Of a stretch of 38,221 nt of DNA, positions 8,286 to 36,996 are shown piece after piece. Position 1 is the stretch's first letter; each line of letters starts with the position of its first letter. The notes beneath the pieces are model-generated. The model ran no database searches, was not told the origin of the DNA, and saw only the letters and a program-made list of their open reading frames with translations. The position numbers and the translations under genes are program-made. The stretch covers positions 1 through 38,221 of IMG/VR virus record IMGVR_UViG_2565956731_000004. One strand, given 5' to 3'. The stretch comes from a virus (lineage: Duplodnaviria > Heunggongvirae > Uroviricota > Caudoviricetes).

Positions 8286-8305
8286 AGCGCACACAAAACA
8301 GGCAA

Positions 8306-8330
8306 AAACGGGATTTCAGAATCCCGTAAA
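8306..8330. repeat. 25-bp repeat with internal palindrome (copy 2, upstream of the parM-like gene)
   Basis: aaacgggatttcagaatcccgtaaa; flanks the presumed promoter of the parM-like operon; candidate centromere or operator site. Confidence 0.7.
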
Positions 8331-8361
8331 CGATTAATTAATCAACATAAGGAAAAGCGAC

Positions 8362-9321
8362 ATGAAAATTTGTATCGACGACGGCTCCACCAACATCAAG
8401 CTGGCATGGACTGAGAACAGCGAACGCCGCAACGCCATCAGCCCGAACAGCTTCAAGTCGGAATGGTCTGCGCCGTTCGGTGGCTCGCAGCCTGCGAACT
8501 ACATGCTTGATGGCGTGCGCTATGGTTTTGATCCGGTCAGCGATCGCTTTGTCCAGACGACCGACACGCAATACCAGTACAGCGATGTGAATGTAATCGC
8601 CATTCACCACGCGCTGGTCAAATCAGGCATCACACCACAGGAGGTGGATGTGGTTGTCACCCTGCCACTGAGCGAGTATTTCGACACAAACGCACAGCCG
8701 GACATGGCCAACATCAACCGCAAAAAAGCAAACGTCATGCGCCCGGTGGAGTACCAGAACGGCGAAGCATTCACTATCCGTAACGTGCGGGTTATGCCTG
8801 AATCCATTCCGGCTGGCTTTAAGGCACTGGCTGACATGAGTCCGTTTGAATCCCTGCTGATTGTGGATTTAGGCGGAACCACGCTGGATGTGGCAAAGGT
8901 CCAGGGACAACTGGCAGGTATCAGCCAGGTGTTTTGCGATCCACACGTAGGCGTTTCCCTGATGGCCGATGCCGTACTGTCGGTGATGGCCACTAACGGT
9001 ATGCGTACCAGTCACCATATCGCCAATACCATTATCGAACATCGCCACGATGAAGCCTGGCTGCGCCAGCACATCCACAATGACGCGCATTACGACAGCC
9101 TGATGGCGGTTATTCGTGAAAAGGAAGAAACACTGAAACAACGAGTGATCCGCGCGCTGGCGGGTTTTTCGGGTTACGGGCGGGTGATGGTTGTCGGTGG
9201 CGGGGCGGAGATTGTGGCACCCGCTATCCGCGAAGCCTGCGGAGTTAATGCGACTTTCATCGCGGACGGGGTGCCACAGTTTGCTCTGGTTAATGGGCTG
9301 TACGCAATGGACAAGGAGTAA
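8362..9321 (+). CDS. actin-like ATPase, ParM/StbA family
   Basis: 319 aa; N-terminus MKICIDDGSTNIKLAW...ISPNSFK...YQYSDVNVIAIHHAL closely parallels the recalled plasmid R1 ParM N-terminus (MLVFIDDGSTNIKLQW...SPNSFK...WQYSDVNVVAVHHAL); glycine-rich VDLGGTT and VVGGGA motifs. Confidence 0.8.
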   Translation: MKICIDDGSTNIKLAWTENSERRNAISPNSFKSEWSAPFGGSQPANYMLDGVRYGFDPVSDRFVQTTDTQYQYSDVNVIAIHHALVKSGITPQEVDVVVTLPLSEYFDTNAQPDMANINRKKANVMRPVEYQNGEAFTIRNVRVMPESIPAGFKALADMSPFESLLIVDLGGTTLDVAKVQGQLAGISQVFCDPHVGVSLMADAVLSVMATNGMRTSHHIANTIIEHRHDEAWLRQHIHNDAHYDSLMAVIREKEETLKQRVIRALAGFSGYGRVMVVGGGAEIVAPAIREACGVNATFIADGVPQFALVNGLYAMDKE

Positions 9322-9325
9322 ACCA

Positions 9326-9637
9326 ATGACGACACCAACCAGACGGATAAGTTTCTATCTGAAGCCCGCCGCCGTCAAGAACGAAGGCGAAGCATGCGCC
9401 TGGCTGGACAGCCTTACACCAGAAGCCCGCAAAAGCGGCCAACGTGTGGCTTTTCTGGCCGGGCTGGCACTTCTGAAAATGAATCCGGCAGAGGCTTACC
9501 GACTGGCTGCATGGGCTGACGATGAGGCGTTATCAGTGACACAAACCAGGACAGAACGCCCCGCGTCACAGCCAGTACCAACCTCACAGATAACCAGTCG
9601 GATGGCCGGAAATATCAGGGCGTTATTTCCCGAATAA
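9326..9637 (+). CDS. ParR-like small DNA-binding adaptor
   Basis: 103 aa from the ATG 4 nt after the parM-like stop (AAGGAG RBS); RRISFYLKP...LDSLTPEARKSGQRVAFLAGLALL...IRALFPE resembles the recalled R1 ParR pattern (RRTIAFKLNP...LDSIP...AALTAGLAL...LRSLFPKE). Confidence 0.6.
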   Translation: MTTPTRRISFYLKPAAVKNEGEACAWLDSLTPEARKSGQRVAFLAGLALLKMNPAEAYRLAAWADDEALSVTQTRTERPASQPVPTSQITSRMAGNIRALFPE

Positions 9638-9642
9638 CACAA

Positions 9643-9666
9643 CATCAGGGCGCATCCGCCCTGATG
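9643..9666 (+). other. perfect 10-bp-stem hairpin between the parR-like gene and the next cassette
   Basis: catcagggcg-catc-cgccctgatg; a third copy of ATCAGGGCG at 9614..9622 inside the parR-like 3' end; no T-run follows, so not a canonical terminator. Confidence 0.5.
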
Positions 9667-9700
9667 ACTTTAATCCGGGAACATAAACAAGGGGGACACA

Positions 9701-10033
9701 ATGCAACACATTGACAGAGAAAAAGCGCAGCGACTGATTGAGCGGATGGAAGCGCTGGCGAAAGAAGAAAATGTCAACATCCAAAAAATAGCTGAATGTG
9801 GCCAGATAGTTCTTCGTCGTGAAAAAGACCTCAAACAACTGATGTCTGGCGAAACCAGCAAAACATGGACTTCAGGCGAGGAGACGATTTATTGCAGCTT
9901 CTGCAATAAATCTCAGTACGAAGTCACAAAGGTGATTGCCGGACCGTCTGTTTGCATCTGCAATGAGTGCGTGGATTTGTGCAATGAAATTATCAGGAGA
10001 GAAGTGACAGACAAAAAGGGAAAAAACGCATGA
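9701..10033 (+). CDS. protein with C-terminal ClpX-type C4 zinc-binding domain
   Basis: 110 aa; C-terminal [34 protein letters not shown] is near-identical in pattern to the E. coli ClpX N-terminal domain ([34 protein letters not shown]); about 60 aa of unrelated N-terminal sequence; AAGGGGGA RBS. Confidence 0.7.
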
Positions 10034-10368
10034 ACAGAAAACAAAAACAAGAGTTGAAATACTTTTTACGTAAAGAAATTGCCAGGCTTGAAGATGCAGA
10101 ATCACAATCATCAGAAATTCCGTTCGGAATGGATATCAACGACGCCCGTATGCTCCAGGCATACCGCATAGCTCAGGCTGCACTACAGGCAAAACCGTCA
10201 GATGGACTGGTTAGAGCAGTACGATTCTATGAACTGGTAAAGCGTGAGAATCCGCCAGCCGAAACCGGAGCATGGAAAGACGCTGTTGACTGGGTACTCA
10301 AAGAGGCTTGTCAGGTTGTAAACACTGGCATCAAAGGAGACCTAGCCCAGCCTGCATCAAAGCTATAG
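10030..10368 (+). CDS. hypothetical protein translationally coupled to the ClpX-zinc-finger-domain protein
   Basis: 112 aa; ATGA overlap with upstream gene; followed by an intrinsic terminator. Confidence 0.55.
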
Positions 10369-10379
10369 AAATGAGCCAA

Positions 10380-10406
10380 AACGCCCTCTTCCAGGGCGTT
10401 TATTTC
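10380..10406 (+). terminator. intrinsic terminator closing the cargo operon
   Basis: AACGCCCT-cttcc-AGGGCGTT followed by a T-rich tract, 12 nt after the stop. Confidence 0.7.
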
Positions 10407-10408
10407 AA

Positions 10409-10435
10409 TGCACAATAGTGCACAAATTTGCACAA
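10409..10435. repeat. three TGCACAA repeats with exact 10-bp phasing
   Basis: TGCACAA at 10409, 10419 and 10429; a fourth copy at 10501..10507. Confidence 0.6.
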
Positions 10436-10478
10436 TTTTTTTGAACGACTTTTTGCCCTTCCGGCCCGCGTGGCGGCT

Positions 10479-10522
10479 GGATCCGTCAAGGATCCGTGCG
10501 TGCACAAAAAAACGCGTTTTTT
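10479..10522. repeat. tandem 11-bp repeat GGATCCGT plus palindrome A7-CGCG-T6
   Basis: ggatccgtcaa / ggatccgtgcg at 10479..10500; aaaaaaacgcgtttttt at 10506..10522. Confidence 0.55.
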
Positions 10523-10810
10523 CTGCGCGCAGGTGACGGGGGAACAGCCCGCGTTTCAGGGGGTAAATAGCGTTCCCTTAACGATGTCGCAGCGACACGA
10601 CAGAATGGCCGTATCTCTCACGCTGAGCGTGAAAAAGACGTGAGGGATTCTGATTTGATGGAGTGAAAGGTAAGGCCGTCAAAATCGCACTGAGGCGGCG
10701 AAGAACATGCAGTCAACGCGGTGGGATTGCGTAAGAGCCTGACCGTCGATGATGGCAAAAAGCTGGAAGGCGTCGTGAAATTATCTGACTGATACAGGAG
10801 CTGGAGAGTC

Positions 10811-10852
10811 GGGGCATAAATTTTTTATGCCCCGGCGAGGCAGCAGACAAGC
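10811..10852. other. candidate cos region (hairpin plus GGCGAGGC-type cohesive-end sequence)
   Basis: Palindrome GGGGCATAAA-TTTTTTATGCCCC (10811..10833) followed by GGCGAGGCAGCAGACAAGC (10834..10852); from memory the P2 cohesive end begins GGCGAGGCGGGG; located just outside the 3' end of Q, where P2 cos lies. Confidence 0.35.
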
Positions 10853-10860
10853 GAAGCGCG

Positions 10861-32501: not shown

Positions 32502-32658
32502 AGCTTCAGCCCCTTGTATCCGTTAAATGATTCGGCAACAATCATCACCCACCACGCGCGTAATCTCACTCCTGCGCCATTCTCCCGCCACGGCGACAAC
32601 AAAAAGCAGTAACCCCCTCCGCACGCACATGCGACCATGCCGCACAGGGAGGGAACAG

Positions 32659-33768
32659 ATGACCGACACCACCATGCAATTGCTCAGTCAGGGCACAGAC
32701 CCCGTGAAAATGCCGGATTTTGATATTCTCGCGGAGGGTAAAACGCTGTCAGGCGTGGCAGAGCGCCTGATGAGCCTGTCACTGACCGACAACCGGGGAT
32801 TTGAAGCAGACCAGCTCACCATCACGCTGGATGATGCGGATGGTCAGTTGCAGCTACCGCCACGGGGCGCGCGCCTGACGGTTCTCATTGGCTGGAAAGG
32901 AGAACCGCTGACAGAAAAAGGCACTTACATTGTTGATGAAATCGCTCACGAAGGACCGCCGGACAGGCTGACTGTTTCAGCCAGAAGTGCAGATTTTCGG
33001 GATGAATTTAACGTTAAACGTGAGGTGTCCTGGCATGATGTGACCGTTGAACGTGTGGTATCCGCCATCGCTCATCGGTACGGCCTGAAACCGCAAATCA
33101 GCGAAATGCTGATGGATATCGAAATCGACCACGCCGACCAGACTGAAGAAAGCGACATGTCCTTCCTTACGCGCATGGCGGAAATGCTGGGCGCAATCAC
33201 CACGGTAAAAAGCGGCAATCTGTTATTCATCATGCCAGGTGGTGGCGTGAACGCACAGGGCCAGCCGTTGCCCTCGTTCGCCATTACACGCAGCAGCGGC
33301 GATCGCCATCAGTTCCGCATTGCTGACCGCGAGGCGTATACGGGGGTACGCGCCTACTGGCTTGATCTTAATTACGGGAAAAAGAAAAAAGTCAGCGTGA
33401 AACGCCGCAAACCGCCAAAACCCAAAAAGGAGAAAAGCAGCAGCCGTGAAGGTGATTATATGGAAGGCGCGGAAGGCAATGTGTTTGTGTTACGCAAGAC
33501 TTATCAGAACGAGCAGGCAGCAAGACGCGCAGCGGCGGCAAAGTGGCAGCAGCTACAACGCGGAGCCGCATCATTCTCCATCACACTGGCACGCGGACGC
33601 GCAGAACTCTACCCCGAAATGCATGGCACGGTAACAGGATTTAAAAGCGAGATTGATAATCAGGACTGGATTATTGCAAAAGTCGAGCACACCGTTGATA
33701 ACAGCGGCTTTACCACGCAGCTTGAGCTTGAAGCAAAAATCCCGGAATGGATAGCGGAAACAGAATGA
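32659..33768 (+). CDS. D: tail protein D (late control gene D-like)
   Basis: 369 aa from the ATG with GGGAGGG RBS (MTDTTMQLL...); divergent from FI rather than downstream of U. Confidence 0.85.
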   Translation: MTDTTMQLLSQGTDPVKMPDFDILAEGKTLSGVAERLMSLSLTDNRGFEADQLTITLDDADGQLQLPPRGARLTVLIGWKGEPLTEKGTYIVDEIAHEGPPDRLTVSARSADFRDEFNVKREVSWHDVTVERVVSAIAHRYGLKPQISEMLMDIEIDHADQTEESDMSFLTRMAEMLGAITTVKSGNLLFIMPGGGVNAQGQPLPSFAITRSSGDRHQFRIADREAYTGVRAYWLDLNYGKKKKVSVKRRKPPKPKKEKSSSREGDYMEGAEGNVFVLRKTYQNEQAARRAAAAKWQQLQRGAASFSITLARGRAELYPEMHGTVTGFKSEIDNQDWIIAKVEHTVDNSGFTTQLELEAKIPEWIAETE

Positions 33769-33879
33769 GCGATTTGGAGATATTAAATCAAACATGAGTA
33801 AATATTACCAATAACAGAGTGTACTTATTGGATGTATAGTTCTTTCATTTTTTAGGAGAAATTAAGAAAATTAACTCAA

Positions 33880-33911
33880 TGTGCACCTTATAAAGGCGCA
33901 CACTTTGTTTT
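33880..33911. terminator. bidirectional hairpin between D and the ParA-like gene
   Basis: TGTGCACC-ttataaa-GGCGCACA followed by a T-rich run; perfect with one G-U pair on the minus-strand transcript. Confidence 0.55.
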
Positions 33912-33916
33912 GCATG

Positions 33917-34975
33917 TTAAAAATTATTTATTATGTGTTCAGCTAAATGATCATACTCACCAGCCATCTCATTCATTAGTTCTACCTGATTAACTGCCCA
34001 TTGCCCCCGCCCACGAAGAGCATTCGTTGGCCTAACTCGAGACAAATAGCGAATAGGTATATTTTGAATAATACTATCAGGAGCCATAACGTTGAGGTCC
34101 TCAATCTTTCCAACTGGTTCATAATCAGTAAAATCAGGAACCGCGTTGTAAGATGAAATCTGTGAAAGCTGAGGAAGCATTTTTTCCTCTATCGCTTTTC
34201 TTATTGAACGGTGATGAACTGCATCTGCACCAACCTCTTGTTTAACATCATTTTGCTTTCTCGTATCAAAACCATTGAATATCCAACCGCCAAATTTAGG
34301 CATCCCTTTCTGAGATATAATATTATCTCGTGGGTTACCTGATAGATATCTTTCCTTGCCCTGCTCCCAATCACGTATAAATGATGGCAACATCTCACCA
34401 ATCAGCCCTACACAATATGAAGAGAATAAATCAGGTGTGCATGGAACTAAAAAATAGTCCGAACAGTACAATGACGATCTAACAAGCGTATTGAATGAGG
34501 GAGGTAAATCTATTAGGACATAATCATAAATAACATCATTTTTCTCTGATGCTTTTTTTGTTATCAAATCTGGCAAAATAAAACGATATAACCCTGCGCC
34601 ACTTATAACATCAGTGCCGACATTTAAAATATCTGAAAATGTATTAAGCCAAAAGTCTCCAGGAACAATATGCAAAACGCCTGCATCTGTCTTAGTCTTA
34701 GGTTCTGTTGTATAAACTTCACCTATAGTATTTTGTTGTATGTAAGGCAATGCAAATGCTTTAACCGTTTTTCCAAAAGGGAAATCATCTGAAGGTTCCA
34801 ATAACTCTGAAAATTCCTCATCACCAATACATGCAATTGAGAGATTACACTGGGGATCAAAGTCTATTAATAAAACACTTTTTCCTTTATCTGCTAGCGA
34901 TACTGCAAGATTCCAAATTATAGTTGTTTTACCAACACCACCTTTGTTATTAAAAATCGATATAGTTTTTGTCAT
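33917..34975 (-). CDS. ParA/MinD-family P-loop ATPase with about 100-aa C-terminal extension, AT-rich gene
   Basis: 352 aa; deviant Walker A KGGVGKTT near the N-terminus; LLIDFDPQCN and DYVLIDLPP motifs; flanked by AT-rich intergenic DNA; composition clearly AT-richer than the tail genes. Confidence 0.8.
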   Translation of the reverse strand: MTKTISIFNNKGGVGKTTIIWNLAVSLADKGKSVLLIDFDPQCNLSIACIGDEEFSELLEPSDDFPFGKTVKAFALPYIQQNTIGEVYTTEPKTKTDAGVLHIVPGDFWLNTFSDILNVGTDVISGAGLYRFILPDLITKKASEKNDVIYDYVLIDLPPSFNTLVRSSLYCSDYFLVPCTPDLFSSYCVGLIGEMLPSFIRDWEQGKERYLSGNPRDNIISQKGMPKFGGWIFNGFDTRKQNDVKQEVGADAVHHRSIRKAIEEKMLPQLSQISSYNAVPDFTDYEPVGKIEDLNVMAPDSIIQNIPIRYLSRVRPTNALRGRGQWAVNQVELMNEMAGEYDHLAEHIINNF

Positions 34976-35234
34976 TTACAACCCTTATTTCAGTGAAATT
35001 TTCGTTGAGAATCAGCATTTGTTTTTTTGCATAAACCACAATTCAACTTTGAGATTAACACAAGCCTTATTGTTATACATTAAAATCCTACTCAAATGAC
35101 ATCATTGAGATACTCATGTAATTTATTCGCCACGACAAAGCCTACTTCAGTGACTTGCTCAAAGCGGAGTTGCTGTTGGAATCTGAGTTGGGGCAACTTA
35201 GAATGGTGGCAGCACCACGTTAAGGGAGGTCGCT

Positions 35235-35495
35235 ATGTTTCGTTGTCCGCTTTGTGGCGCATCTGCCCGTATCCGCACCAGTCGTCCTGAAAATGATTCA
35301 AACACCGTGCGGCAAAAGTATTACCAGTGTAACAATCTGGAATGCGGCGTATGCTTCTCAACACTGGAAGCTTTCCATAAATTCACATCAAAACACGCCT
35401 CCGGCGCTCTCTCTTCAGAAGGTATCCCGTGGCATAAGCTGCCAGCTTCACACAGGGGAAACAATCAGATGAGTTTGCCTTTACCTCAGAATTAA
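35235..35495 (+). CDS. ogr: late gene activator, Ogr/Delta zinc-finger family
   Basis: 86 aa; MFRCPLCG...YYQCNNLECGVCF Cys4 arrangement as in P2 Ogr; located near the prophage right end. Confidence 0.75.
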   Translation: MFRCPLCGASARIRTSRPENDSNTVRQKYYQCNNLECGVCFSTLEAFHKFTSKHASGALSSEGIPWHKLPASHRGNNQMSLPLPQN

Positions 35496-35686
35496 TGGGC
35501 AGAATTGCCGGAGCAACAAAAAAGCGATAGATTACGCGCGGGTGCCTTTCGGCTGATGGTCGGAGGGAATACCCGAAGGCCAGATGTGGAAAGGCCCCGG
35601 AAAACATTTCTGTTTAACCGAGGCCCTAACATATCTACCTTAAGCAAGTGATAGGTTAGCGCCTCTCCAACAAAGGAGCAAGCGCT

Positions 35687-35827
35687 ATGTCGCAAAAATC
35701 GCTTACGGCCATCACGTTCTGCGTGACGGTAATCCTCATCATCTGGATGCTGCACGGTTCGCTGTGTGAAATACGGATGAGCTTCTGGGGAGCGGAGTTT
35801 GCGGCGTTCTTACAGTGTAAGCAGTAA
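35687..35827 (+). CDS. Hok/Gef-family type I toxin (46 aa)
   Basis: MSQKSLTAITFCVTVILIIWMLHGSLCEIRMSFWGAEFAAFLQCKQ; single TM helix plus SLCE and AAFL motifs as in recalled HokA; AAGGAG RBS; below the ORF-track size cut-off. Confidence 0.6.
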   Translation: MSQKSLTAITFCVTVILIIWMLHGSLCEIRMSFWGAEFAAFLQCKQ

Positions 35828-36018: not shown

Positions 36019-36062
36019 TTGTTATCATATCGGCAGCAGTAACCACACAAGAGGTGCCGCAA

Positions 36063-36260
36063 ATGACGCAAAATGTACGATGCAAAAATTGCAACAAACT
36101 ACTTGCCCGCGCCTCATTTCACTACATTGAAATAAAATGTCCGCGCTGCAAAACACTTAACCAGATAACGAGAGCCATTGAGCCCCCCACACACATGAGG
36201 AGTTATGACCGTGGGGATCGCAATCCAGCACCAACCAGCACATACACCGGAACACACTAA
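36063..36260 (+). CDS. Com-like zinc-ribbon protein (Mu Com family)
   Basis: About 65 aa from the ATG at 36063 (AAGAGG RBS); VRCKNCNKLLARASFHYIEIKCPRCKTLN matches recalled Mu Com (IRCKNCNKLLFKA...HIEIRCPRCK); 3' end overlaps the methyltransferase start by 56 nt. Confidence 0.6.
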   Translation: MTQNVRCKNCNKLLARASFHYIEIKCPRCKTLNQITRAIEPPTHMRSYDRGDRNPAPTSTYTGTH

Positions 36261-36996
36261 GGTTTATCAGACTGACAATGCCACGCTCTGTCGTGGGAAT
36301 GCGCTGGAAATATTGCCGCTGATTGAGCCAGAAAGTATTGATGCCTTAATCACTGACCCGCCTTACAGTTCGGGCGCGACACACAAGGCCGGACGCACCA
36401 ACCAGGGCAGCCACGCAAAATATCTGAACGGCGAGAACCTTCATCGCTTTGATGGGTTTGCGGGTGAAAACATGGATGCCCGTTCGTGGGCTTACTGGAC
36501 ACAATTATGGATGGCACAGGCACACCGCGCAGTCAGGCCGGGCGGTTATGCCCTGGTATTTACTGACTGGCGACAACTGCCAGCTTTAACCGATGCGTTT
36601 CAGGCCAGCGGTTTTACATGGCGTGGAATCATTGCGTGGAACAAAGGAAGGGGGTCACGAACACCCCATACGGGGTATTTCCGGCATCAGTGCGAATACA
36701 TCGTCTGGGGCAGTAAAGGCCATTTAGGTAAATCGCCTTCGGGACCGTTCGACGGCTGCATGACGTTCCCGGTTATCCCATCAAAGAAAATGCACCCGAC
36801 CGGAAAACCAGAAGAACTTATGGCAGAACTGGTCAGGACTGCGAATAGTGGTGGAACAGTCCTTGATCCTTTTATGGGATCGGGAACAACGGGTGTTGCA
36901 GCACTGAAAGCAGGGCGCAAATTTATTGGTATAGAAACCAGTGATCATTATTTTGATATAGCAACACAACGGCTCAAAACGGCGATCGAACCATAA
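36205..36996 (+). CDS. DNA methyltransferase (N6-adenine/N4-cytosine class, DPPY motif)
   Basis: 263 aa; catalytic DPPY (LITDPPYSS) near the N-terminus and AdoMet motif DPFMGSGTTG near the C-terminus; GAGG RBS. Confidence 0.85.
   Translation: MTVGIAIQHQPAHTPEHTKVYQTDNATLCRGNALEILPLIEPESIDALITDPPYSSGATHKAGRTNQGSHAKYLNGENLHRFDGFAGENMDARSWAYWTQLWMAQAHRAVRPGGYALVFTDWRQLPALTDAFQASGFTWRGIIAWNKGRGSRTPHTGYFRHQCEYIVWGSKGHLGKSPSGPFDGCMTFPVIPSKKMHPTGKPEELMAELVRTANSGGTVLDPFMGSGTTGVAALKAGRKFIGIETSDHYFDIATQRLKTAIEP

Follow-up and report, generated by a model that had tools for sequence, protein, structure and literature searches.

A solitary long ParA/MinD-type ATPase in a cargo hotspot of P88-like prophages: a candidate single-gene anti-phage factor

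Why should a P2-related prophage carry a lone, leftward gene for a ParA/MinD-type ATPase between its tail gene D and its late activator gene ogr? We addressed this question in a 38,221-nucleotide stretch of DNA from a tailed phage (Caudoviricetes; IMG/VR record IMGVR_UViG_2565956731_000004, positions 1 to 38,221), hereafter the window, which holds a P88-like (Xuanwuvirus, P2-related) E. coli prophage integrated beside flk. A preliminary description of this DNA had proposed that the gene encodes a single-gene exclusion factor or a DNA-positioning accessory of the phage. We find that the D–ogr junction is a variable cargo hotspot of P88-like prophages and that the ParA-like gene is very unlikely to be a partition system. 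We favour, with a probability of roughly 0.55, the reading that the cassette is a moron-type single-gene factor that protects the lysogen against phages or other mobile elements.

The D–ogr junction as a cargo hotspot

The junction and its cargo in the window consist of the following features.

32527..33768, plus strand: tail gene D (late control D / VgrG-Pvc8 family), left border of the hotspot, from its open reading frame and the annotation of homologous records
33770..35190, strand not assigned: AT-rich cargo cassette of about 1.4 kb, delimited by the GC profile and by breakpoints against P88, 500465-2, 520873 and five Escherichia coli prophages with other cargo
About 33800-35155: cargo-specific core of the cassette
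33904..33878, minus strand: terminator-like hairpin 3' of the ParA-like gene, found by scan (12-pair stem with 5 G-C pairs, loop of 3)
33917..34975, minus strand: coding sequence of the solitary 'long' ParA/MinD-type ATPase, 352 amino acids with the N-terminus MTKTISIFNNKGGVGKTT, an intact open reading frame
34976..35190, minus strand: 215 bp of non-coding DNA 5' of the ParA-like gene, where a promoter is presumed
35235..35495, plus strand: ogr (Ogr/Delta zinc-finger late activator), right border of the hotspot, from its open reading frame and the annotation of homologous records

In phages P88, PhiR44_2, Chuche, P884B11 and Shae_phiSM, D and ogr are separated by 44 bp, and alignment with P88 placed the insert of the window at about 33770-35190. 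The same site is occupied in phage 500465-2 by a gene for a 340-amino-acid protein with a weak HEPN_RiboL-PSP match, and in phage 520873 by one for a 132-amino-acid protein of no known family. The flanks were matched in 1557 of 5426 complete E. coli genomes, and the junction is thus present in roughly a quarter of them. We surveyed its occupants in a spread sample of these 1557 genomes. The empty junction was the commonest state; other occupants were a PIN_4 protein (500 amino acids), a PIN_12 protein (356 amino acids), a SEC-C-motif 'YecA family' protein, a DUF2971 protein matching the PADLOC candidate PDC-S31, a TM2-domain protein, unknowns and IS600/IS3. At least eight different cargoes use common breakpoints (left, 33756-33799; right, 35155-35194), and the alternative cargo is 0.9-1.9 kb long with a GC content of 0.33-0.43. 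The main surveys of P2 hotspots focus on the gpA-gpQ and tail-fibre regions (PMC9122126; PMC13586616), and a third P2 hotspot adjoining a tail gene has been noted in a preprint. P2 hotspots in general are therefore known already; what is new here is the definition of the D–ogr junction as a hotspot for single-gene cargo.

We also observed that prophages with unrelated cargo have in common the first 20-30 bp past the D stop codon (33769-33799) and the last 20-40 bp ahead of the ogr ribosome-binding site (35155-35194). These common outer ends may be the recombination borders of the hotspot.

The ParA cassette was found in 15 of the 5426 genomes, at 99.3-100% identity, and one carrier is a prophage without its tail genes. 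The preliminary description had reported about 1.4 kb of AT-rich DNA at this position and had taken it for a recent horizontal acquisition. The AT-richness is confirmed and horizontal acquisition is supported: the gene has a GC content of 0.36 against 0.53, and the insert is absent from P88 and most relatives as well as rare in E. coli. Between about 33600 and 35249, windows of 300 nt have a GC content of 0.30-0.39; the values are 0.52-0.58 towards D and 0.47-0.52 towards ogr. Of the 38 kilobases in the window, 34001-35000 has the lowest GC content (0.364). The ParA-like gene itself has a GC content of 0.363, and of 0.252 at third codon positions, whereas the remainder of the window stands at 0.529. 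The gene runs against the late operon and is followed by a terminator-like hairpin of its own (33878-33904), which lies 13 nt beyond its stop codon on the minus strand and also shortly after the end of D on the plus strand.

Upstream of the gene we noticed three imperfect direct repeats, ACAAsCCTTAyTT(CAGTGA), at 34978-34996, 35060-35071 and 35135-35153, the first of which overlaps the ribosome-binding site of the ParA-like gene. By eye, a TAAGGsyT-like motif seems to be present upstream of the Providencia homologue (contig L022). The repeats could be an operator or a chance occurrence in AT-rich DNA. No Rfam model matched anywhere in the cassette, the only match being sok, downstream of ogr. 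A hidden partner, small open reading frame or non-coding RNA within the cassette was rejected on this result and on the flanking DNA of the gene, which is not conserved in homologous loci of other taxa.

Architecture and conservation of the ParA-like protein

The leftward deviant-Walker-A gene of the preliminary description is a ParA/MinD-type gene by its profile matches. Pfam AAA_31 covers residues 2-189 (E 8.8e-30), CbiA also matches, and the match to PHROG 164 ('ParA-like partition protein') spans the full length; RefSeq labels the gene 'ParA family protein'. The deviant Walker A motif K11-GGVG-K16-T17, with its signature lysine K11, is invariant in 49 homologues (residue positions are alignment numbering plus one). 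Invariant in the same alignment are the switch I/A' residues D38/D40 (DFDPQ), the Walker B residue D156 (LIDLPP) and three cysteines, C43, C179 and C188. From these conserved motifs, ATP-dependent dimerisation and ATPase activity are predicted. All NCBIfam partition and MinD models scored far under their cut-offs (ParA_partition, 72.7 against 180 bits; RepA, SopA and PrgP likewise).

A confident AlphaFold model built with the 49 homologues (predicted local distance difference test score 88.7, predicted template-modelling score 0.90) matches McdA, pNOB8 ParA, MinD and FleN, and Foldseek concurs. In this model the whole protein is a single ParA/MinD fold with about 100 inserted residues, located, as judged from the secondary structure of the model, at about 60-98, 182-225 and 270-326. 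On our reading of alignment and model, the conserved stretch IEDLNVMAPDSIIQNxPIxYL and the last helix take the place of the ordinary ParA C-terminal elements. The extra, novel C-terminal domain that had been proposed is thereby ruled out: the structure assigns residues 200-352 to the ParA fold, and a phmmer search with these residues gave no separate domain. That search returned only 34 matches among 1.84 billion cluster representatives, so the family is narrow. Matches that were inspected directly, or assessed from their length and match position, proved to be fragments or to share this architecture; one of the 34, a repetitive protein of 6458 amino acids, is spurious. The ParA-like protein contains no nuclease, protease, transmembrane or other effector module. 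By eye, its acidic C-terminus (...EYDHLAEHIINNF) does not resemble the amphipathic membrane helix of MinD, and the acidic end (...AGEYDHLAEHIINNF) is part of a long helix that is packed in the model.

More than 100 full-length homologues share about 60-93% identity. Their hosts include Erwinia, Providencia, Hahella, Pseudomonas, Vibrio, Aeromonas, Gluconobacter, Desulfocicer, Rhodocyclaceae, cyanobacteria, Clostridium pasteurianum and Desulfofundulus, and identity above 60% is maintained across Proteobacteria, Cyanobacteria and Firmicutes. A scan of genome contigs speaks to taxonomic breadth, among the matches listed, and not to prevalence. Deposited phage genomes contain no close homologue (best below 36% identity), and the literature on isolated phages therefore gives no direct lead. 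The ratio of non-synonymous to synonymous substitution rates (dN/dS) is 0.05-0.09 in the closest pairs, at dS of 0.7-0.9; in more distant pairs synonymous sites are saturated, with amino acid identity still at 64-82%. These values indicate strong purifying selection on the family. Nucleotide homology to the closest homologues runs from about 15 bp before the ATG to the stop codon, and in 17 of 18 loci the gene exceeds its surroundings in AT content.

The conservation bears on the most deflationary explanation, a functionless passenger such as the decaying remnant of a partition gene from a plasmid or an integrative and conjugative element, carried along by recombination. Its rarity in E. coli and its persistence in a prophage without tail genes would fit such a passenger, but the open reading frame is intact, the catalytic residues are invariant and full-length homologues are numerous. 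The selection analysis strongly disfavours this explanation, and we give it almost no credence.

Cyanobacterial members are longer, at 413-466 amino acids (P0098, P0084, P0089, P0090, P0114 and P0118; L018:6001-7245). Some of them show sub-threshold helix-turn-helix matches (HTH_28, HTH_17, MerR_1, Cro) in an N-terminal extension of about 60 residues, which hints at DNA binding or autoregulation.

Genomic contexts and a putative anti-phage role

The preliminary description had suggested looking for the gene at other prophage positions, and family members were indeed found in the gpQ-gpA and gemA-mor regions and in a Clostridium prophage, as well as in islands.

Providencia rettgeri (88% identity): in the classic old/tin defence hotspot of a P2-like prophage, between portal gene gpQ and gpA
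IMG/VR contig L038 (42% identity): beside the portal gene of another P2-like element, in the gpQ-gpA hotspot
Vibrio cholerae: in a Mu-like prophage, between gemA and mor
IMG/VR contig L033: in another Mu-like element, just after mor
Clostridium pasteurianum: in a prophage, adjoining the integrase gene on the opposite strand
Vibrio alginolyticus: at the end of another prophage-like element
Pseudomonas: in an island with an integrase
Hahella: between McrBC and a Gabija-like AAA_15/AAA_21 + UvrD pair
Xenococcus and Desulfocicer: amid toxin-antitoxin genes
Desulfofundulus: beside IS110

Among 110 neighbour proteins examined at 25 loci, the families met most often were phage integrase, terminase, portal, GemA, ABC-type defence ATPases, PDC-S06 and PIN; three of the neighbouring ATPases match AriA/AbiL/mad3, and two of these three also match GajA/PtuA/Old. 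In an all-against-all comparison no neighbour family recurred in more than 2 of 19 loci, and those that were shared came from related elements. As the preliminary description had it, the gene lacks an adjacent ParB-like partner: no ParB/ParG-type protein lies beside the window gene, whose neighbours are D and ogr, none is found in the 19 loci compared, and the 25 Pfam families with the most matches to the 110 neighbour proteins include no partition partner. Given these contexts and the lack of recurrent neighbours, the gene is a self-contained module of mobile elements and conflict loci, without ParB. In the gpQ-gpA hotspot of the Providencia P2-like prophage, the ParA homologue is accompanied, across an 830-bp gap, by a 237-amino-acid protein without Pfam or PADLOC match (L022:4456-5169), which was not found beside other family members.

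A precedent for a solitary ParA-like gene with a protective role comes from Salmonella. GiPD474 (STM474_RS13505, gipd474) is a 361-amino-acid ParA/MinD/Soj-like protein encoded by a single gene of prophage Gifsy-1 in Salmonella Typhimurium 4/74 (Bosma, Noireaux & Bowden, AEM 2025; PMC12724215). It protects Salmonella and E. coli: in its presence T4 and Alf5 plate about 5 logs lower and FO1 is strongly reduced, and T7, SP6 and several others are unaffected. Its action probably follows adsorption (PMC12724215). We obtained its sequence from a viral contig (L116:5723-6805) by means of the published knockout primer. BLASTP aligned the window protein with GiPD474 at 26% identity over 255 residues (E 9e-14), and profile-profile comparison with hhalign extended the match to 321 columns, residues 1-332 against 14-349, at a probability of 99.1% (E 8.9e-19). 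The two have in common the motifs NNKGGVGKT, PQxN, PGD, PSF and PCTxD, several of which also occur in DIP2308 and pNOB8 ParA. GiPD474 itself has no PADLOC match.

We favour the anti-phage reading because of the hotspot location, the contexts of conflict, the solitary unit, the constraint on the protein, the AT-rich xenogeneic signature and the GiPD474 precedent. The single-gene exclusion or defence factor named in the preliminary description thus remains the leading idea, now backed by family members in the old/tin hotspot, the Mu-like early region and islands of defence and toxin-antitoxin genes.

Several observations weigh against this reading. ParA-fold proteins have many unrelated roles, and GiPD474 is only remotely related to the window protein, with pNOB8 ParA and DIP2308 at least as close; the anti-phage phenotype is that of GiPD474 alone. 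PADLOC-DB v2 gave no full-length defence match, its sole match being PDC-M28B on residues 3-40, confined to the P-loop, an identity that we dropped. The alternative cargo genes of the junction are themselves mostly unvalidated. Defence sensors usually evolve fast, and this family is unusually conserved. On the minus strand of 34976-35190 a consensus scan gave no sigma-70-like site, so of the gene's proposed own promoter and terminator the terminator-like hairpin was recovered and the promoter is presumed.

The copy in V. cholerae, co-oriented with the early operon of its Mu-like prophage, likewise weighs against the anti-phage reading, since this orientation fits a phage-side function as well as a lysogen-side one. 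The product could be a counter-defence factor, or one that takes over the host or a competitor during lytic growth or induction, for instance by disturbing the nucleoid or the ParA-dependent partition of competing plasmids or phage-plasmids (incompatibility or exclusion). The position just after mor in the second Mu-like contig, the absence of an effector domain, which suits a binder or inhibitor, and the high conservation, which would fit a conserved cellular target, all agree with such a function. In the window, however, the antisense orientation to the late operon and the separate terminator-like hairpin are typical of morons; the family also occurs in non-phage islands, next to McrBC and the Gabija-like pair or among toxin-antitoxin genes; and GiPD474, the sole tested ParA-like prophage gene of such architecture, protects the host. 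We regard a phage-side function as unlikely.

Could the protein instead be what its fold first suggests, a true ATPase that partitions or positions the genome of the phage, or another element, in a type I par system whose partner is missing or unrecognised? The fold with all its ATPase motifs, the name of PHROG 164, the cyanobacterial extension, which recalls type Ia ParA, and the DNA-binding pNOB8 ParA among the nearest solved relatives point in that direction. Against it stand the lack of a ParB or evident centromere-like partner in 19-25 loci, the low NCBIfam partition scores, the absence of the gene from P88 and most relatives, the integration of the prophage next to flk and the presence of family members in chromosomal islands. 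P88-like phages, moreover, already have an independent ParM/StbB module. This module is kept in P88, PhiR44_2, Shae_phiSM, Chuche, 520873 and others; because it is conserved in phages without the insert, it is part of the P88-like backbone and unconnected with the ParA insert, and a link of the ParA-like gene to the prophage's own partition genes is ruled out. A partition ATPase is thus very unlikely, and the DNA-positioning accessory of the preliminary description falls with it, as close relatives do without the gene and neither a ParB nor an evident parS accompanies it. The only candidates for centromere repeats next to the gene are the three short imperfect copies upstream, and its flanks are not conserved in other loci.

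The module is in itself a type II plasmid-partition system within an integrated P2-like prophage. It occupies 8362-9637, inside the gpA-gpQ hotspot (8286-10860), and consists of a ParM/StbA actin-like ATPase (8362..9321; PF06406, E 8e-82, plus PF21523) followed by StbB/'Plasmid_stab_B' to 9637. After StbB come a ClpX-type zinc-finger protein (9701..10033) and a 112-amino-acid unknown (10030..10368).

A further explanation is lysogenic conversion, in which a ParA/MinD-type switch like FleN/FlhG, MinD or Soj would modulate division, motility or transcription of the host. Identity above 60% from Proteobacteria to Cyanobacteria and Firmicutes makes a lineage-specific host partner unlikely, the acidic C-terminus is not MinD-like, and the contexts are mobile elements and defence islands, not division or flagellar loci. 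We consider such a regulator distinctly improbable.

If the gene does protect the lysogen, it would be expressed from the prophage, and its product might act after adsorption through ATP-dependent binding to DNA, to the nucleoid or to a conserved component of the invader, with the target sequestered or mislocalised and not destroyed. We infer this mode from the full set of ATPase-switch motifs without an effector domain; it is speculation from domain content, and this too counts against the anti-phage reading. The unusual constraint suggests a conserved target rather than a rapidly evolving sensor surface for phages. Taken further, the family might provide 'immunity by positioning', in which an effector-less ATPase found across phyla captures invader DNA, or a component of replication or packaging, and mislocalises it on the nucleoid. 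A universal target would explain the constraint from E. coli to Clostridium and cyanobacteria. To our knowledge this mode has not been described for any defence system, and we offer it as a tentative and rather doubtful extension.

Should the defence reading hold, ParA/MinD-type ATPases would form a recurrent one-gene class of immunity with two independent families, the present one and that of GiPD474. Such genes are normally screened out of defence searches as 'plasmid partition', and the absent effector domain would point to a mechanism unlike the usual nuclease, NADase or membrane effectors. The cargo of the D–ogr junction (PIN, HEPN-like, DUF2971, SEC-C and unknowns), being mostly uncharacterised, provides a candidate list for testing. 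Carriers of the ParA-like gene include E. coli isolates of Shiga-toxin type and others of clinical or bovine origin, and the gene could influence phage typing or therapy.

Other features lie to the right of the junction. A hok/sok toxin-antitoxin locus (35540-35827) directly 3' of ogr is present in essentially all related prophages; its sok RNA matches RF01794 at 35540-35697 with 47.9 bits, under the gathering score of 59, and the hok open reading frame spans 35687..35827. At the right prophage end, just before host flk (37226..), the gene for a Com-like zinc-ribbon protein (36054..36260; PF10122) runs into the start of that for an N6/N4 DNA methyltransferase (36205..36996; PADLOC MTase_II, E 1e-63). 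This layout resembles the com-mom-style translational control of a DNA-modification gene in Mu.

Comparison with known systems

The D–ogr junction resembles the accessory hotspots of P2 (old/tin between gpA and gpQ, and the Z/fun tail region) and morons in general, in that variable, AT-rich, independently transcribed cargo with many alternative occupants sits between core genes. It differs from old/tin and Z/fun as a separate, less described site whose cargo is almost entirely uncharacterised.

Partition ATPases of the ParA/Soj type, including pNOB8 ParA, differ from the window gene, which is without ParB, evident parS or operon. Its product is about 100 residues longer through insertions and falls under all NCBIfam partition cut-offs, and its family resides in prophage hotspots and defence islands. 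DIP2308 of Corynebacterium diphtheriae (PDB 3PG5), a structural-genomics target of no known function, is about 23% identical and uninformative on mechanism. We also considered AhCobQ, a 'CobQ/MinD/ParA' protein reported to be a lysine deacetylase (PMC11856932); it is a 264-amino-acid chromosomal protein with a different C-terminal segment and does not belong to the window family.

GiPD474 has much in common with the window protein. Both are products of single prophage genes with an AAA_31 match, similar length (361 and 352 amino acids), no partner and collinear sequences, and both belong to widely transferred families that are highly conserved across distant taxa. Close homologues of GiPD474 have been described within Enterobacteriaceae (PMC12724215); we also found homologues (P0155-P0274) in Campylobacter, Aggregatibacter, Acinetobacter, Moraxella, Azospirillum, Gallionella and cable bacteria, at 54-69% identity over 94-96% of the length. 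At 24-26% identity, however, the two proteins fall into separate families by the usual thresholds, and the window protein lies outside the published definition of GiPD474 membership, at least 70% identity and at least 70% coverage (PMC12724215). Homologue lists of the two, 120 each, did not overlap among the matches listed. GiPD474 is located in a lambdoid immunity region and has an N-terminal extension of 18 residues, whereas the window family occupies P2 and Mu hotspots and islands across phyla. The sequence comparison indicates that the window protein is a member of a different family of the same architectural type and not an orthologue, the relationship being real but remote. Single-gene defence by a ParA-like protein was known from the published work; what the window adds is a second, cross-phylum and strongly constrained family of solitary 'long ParA' proteins that prophage hotspots have captured repeatedly.

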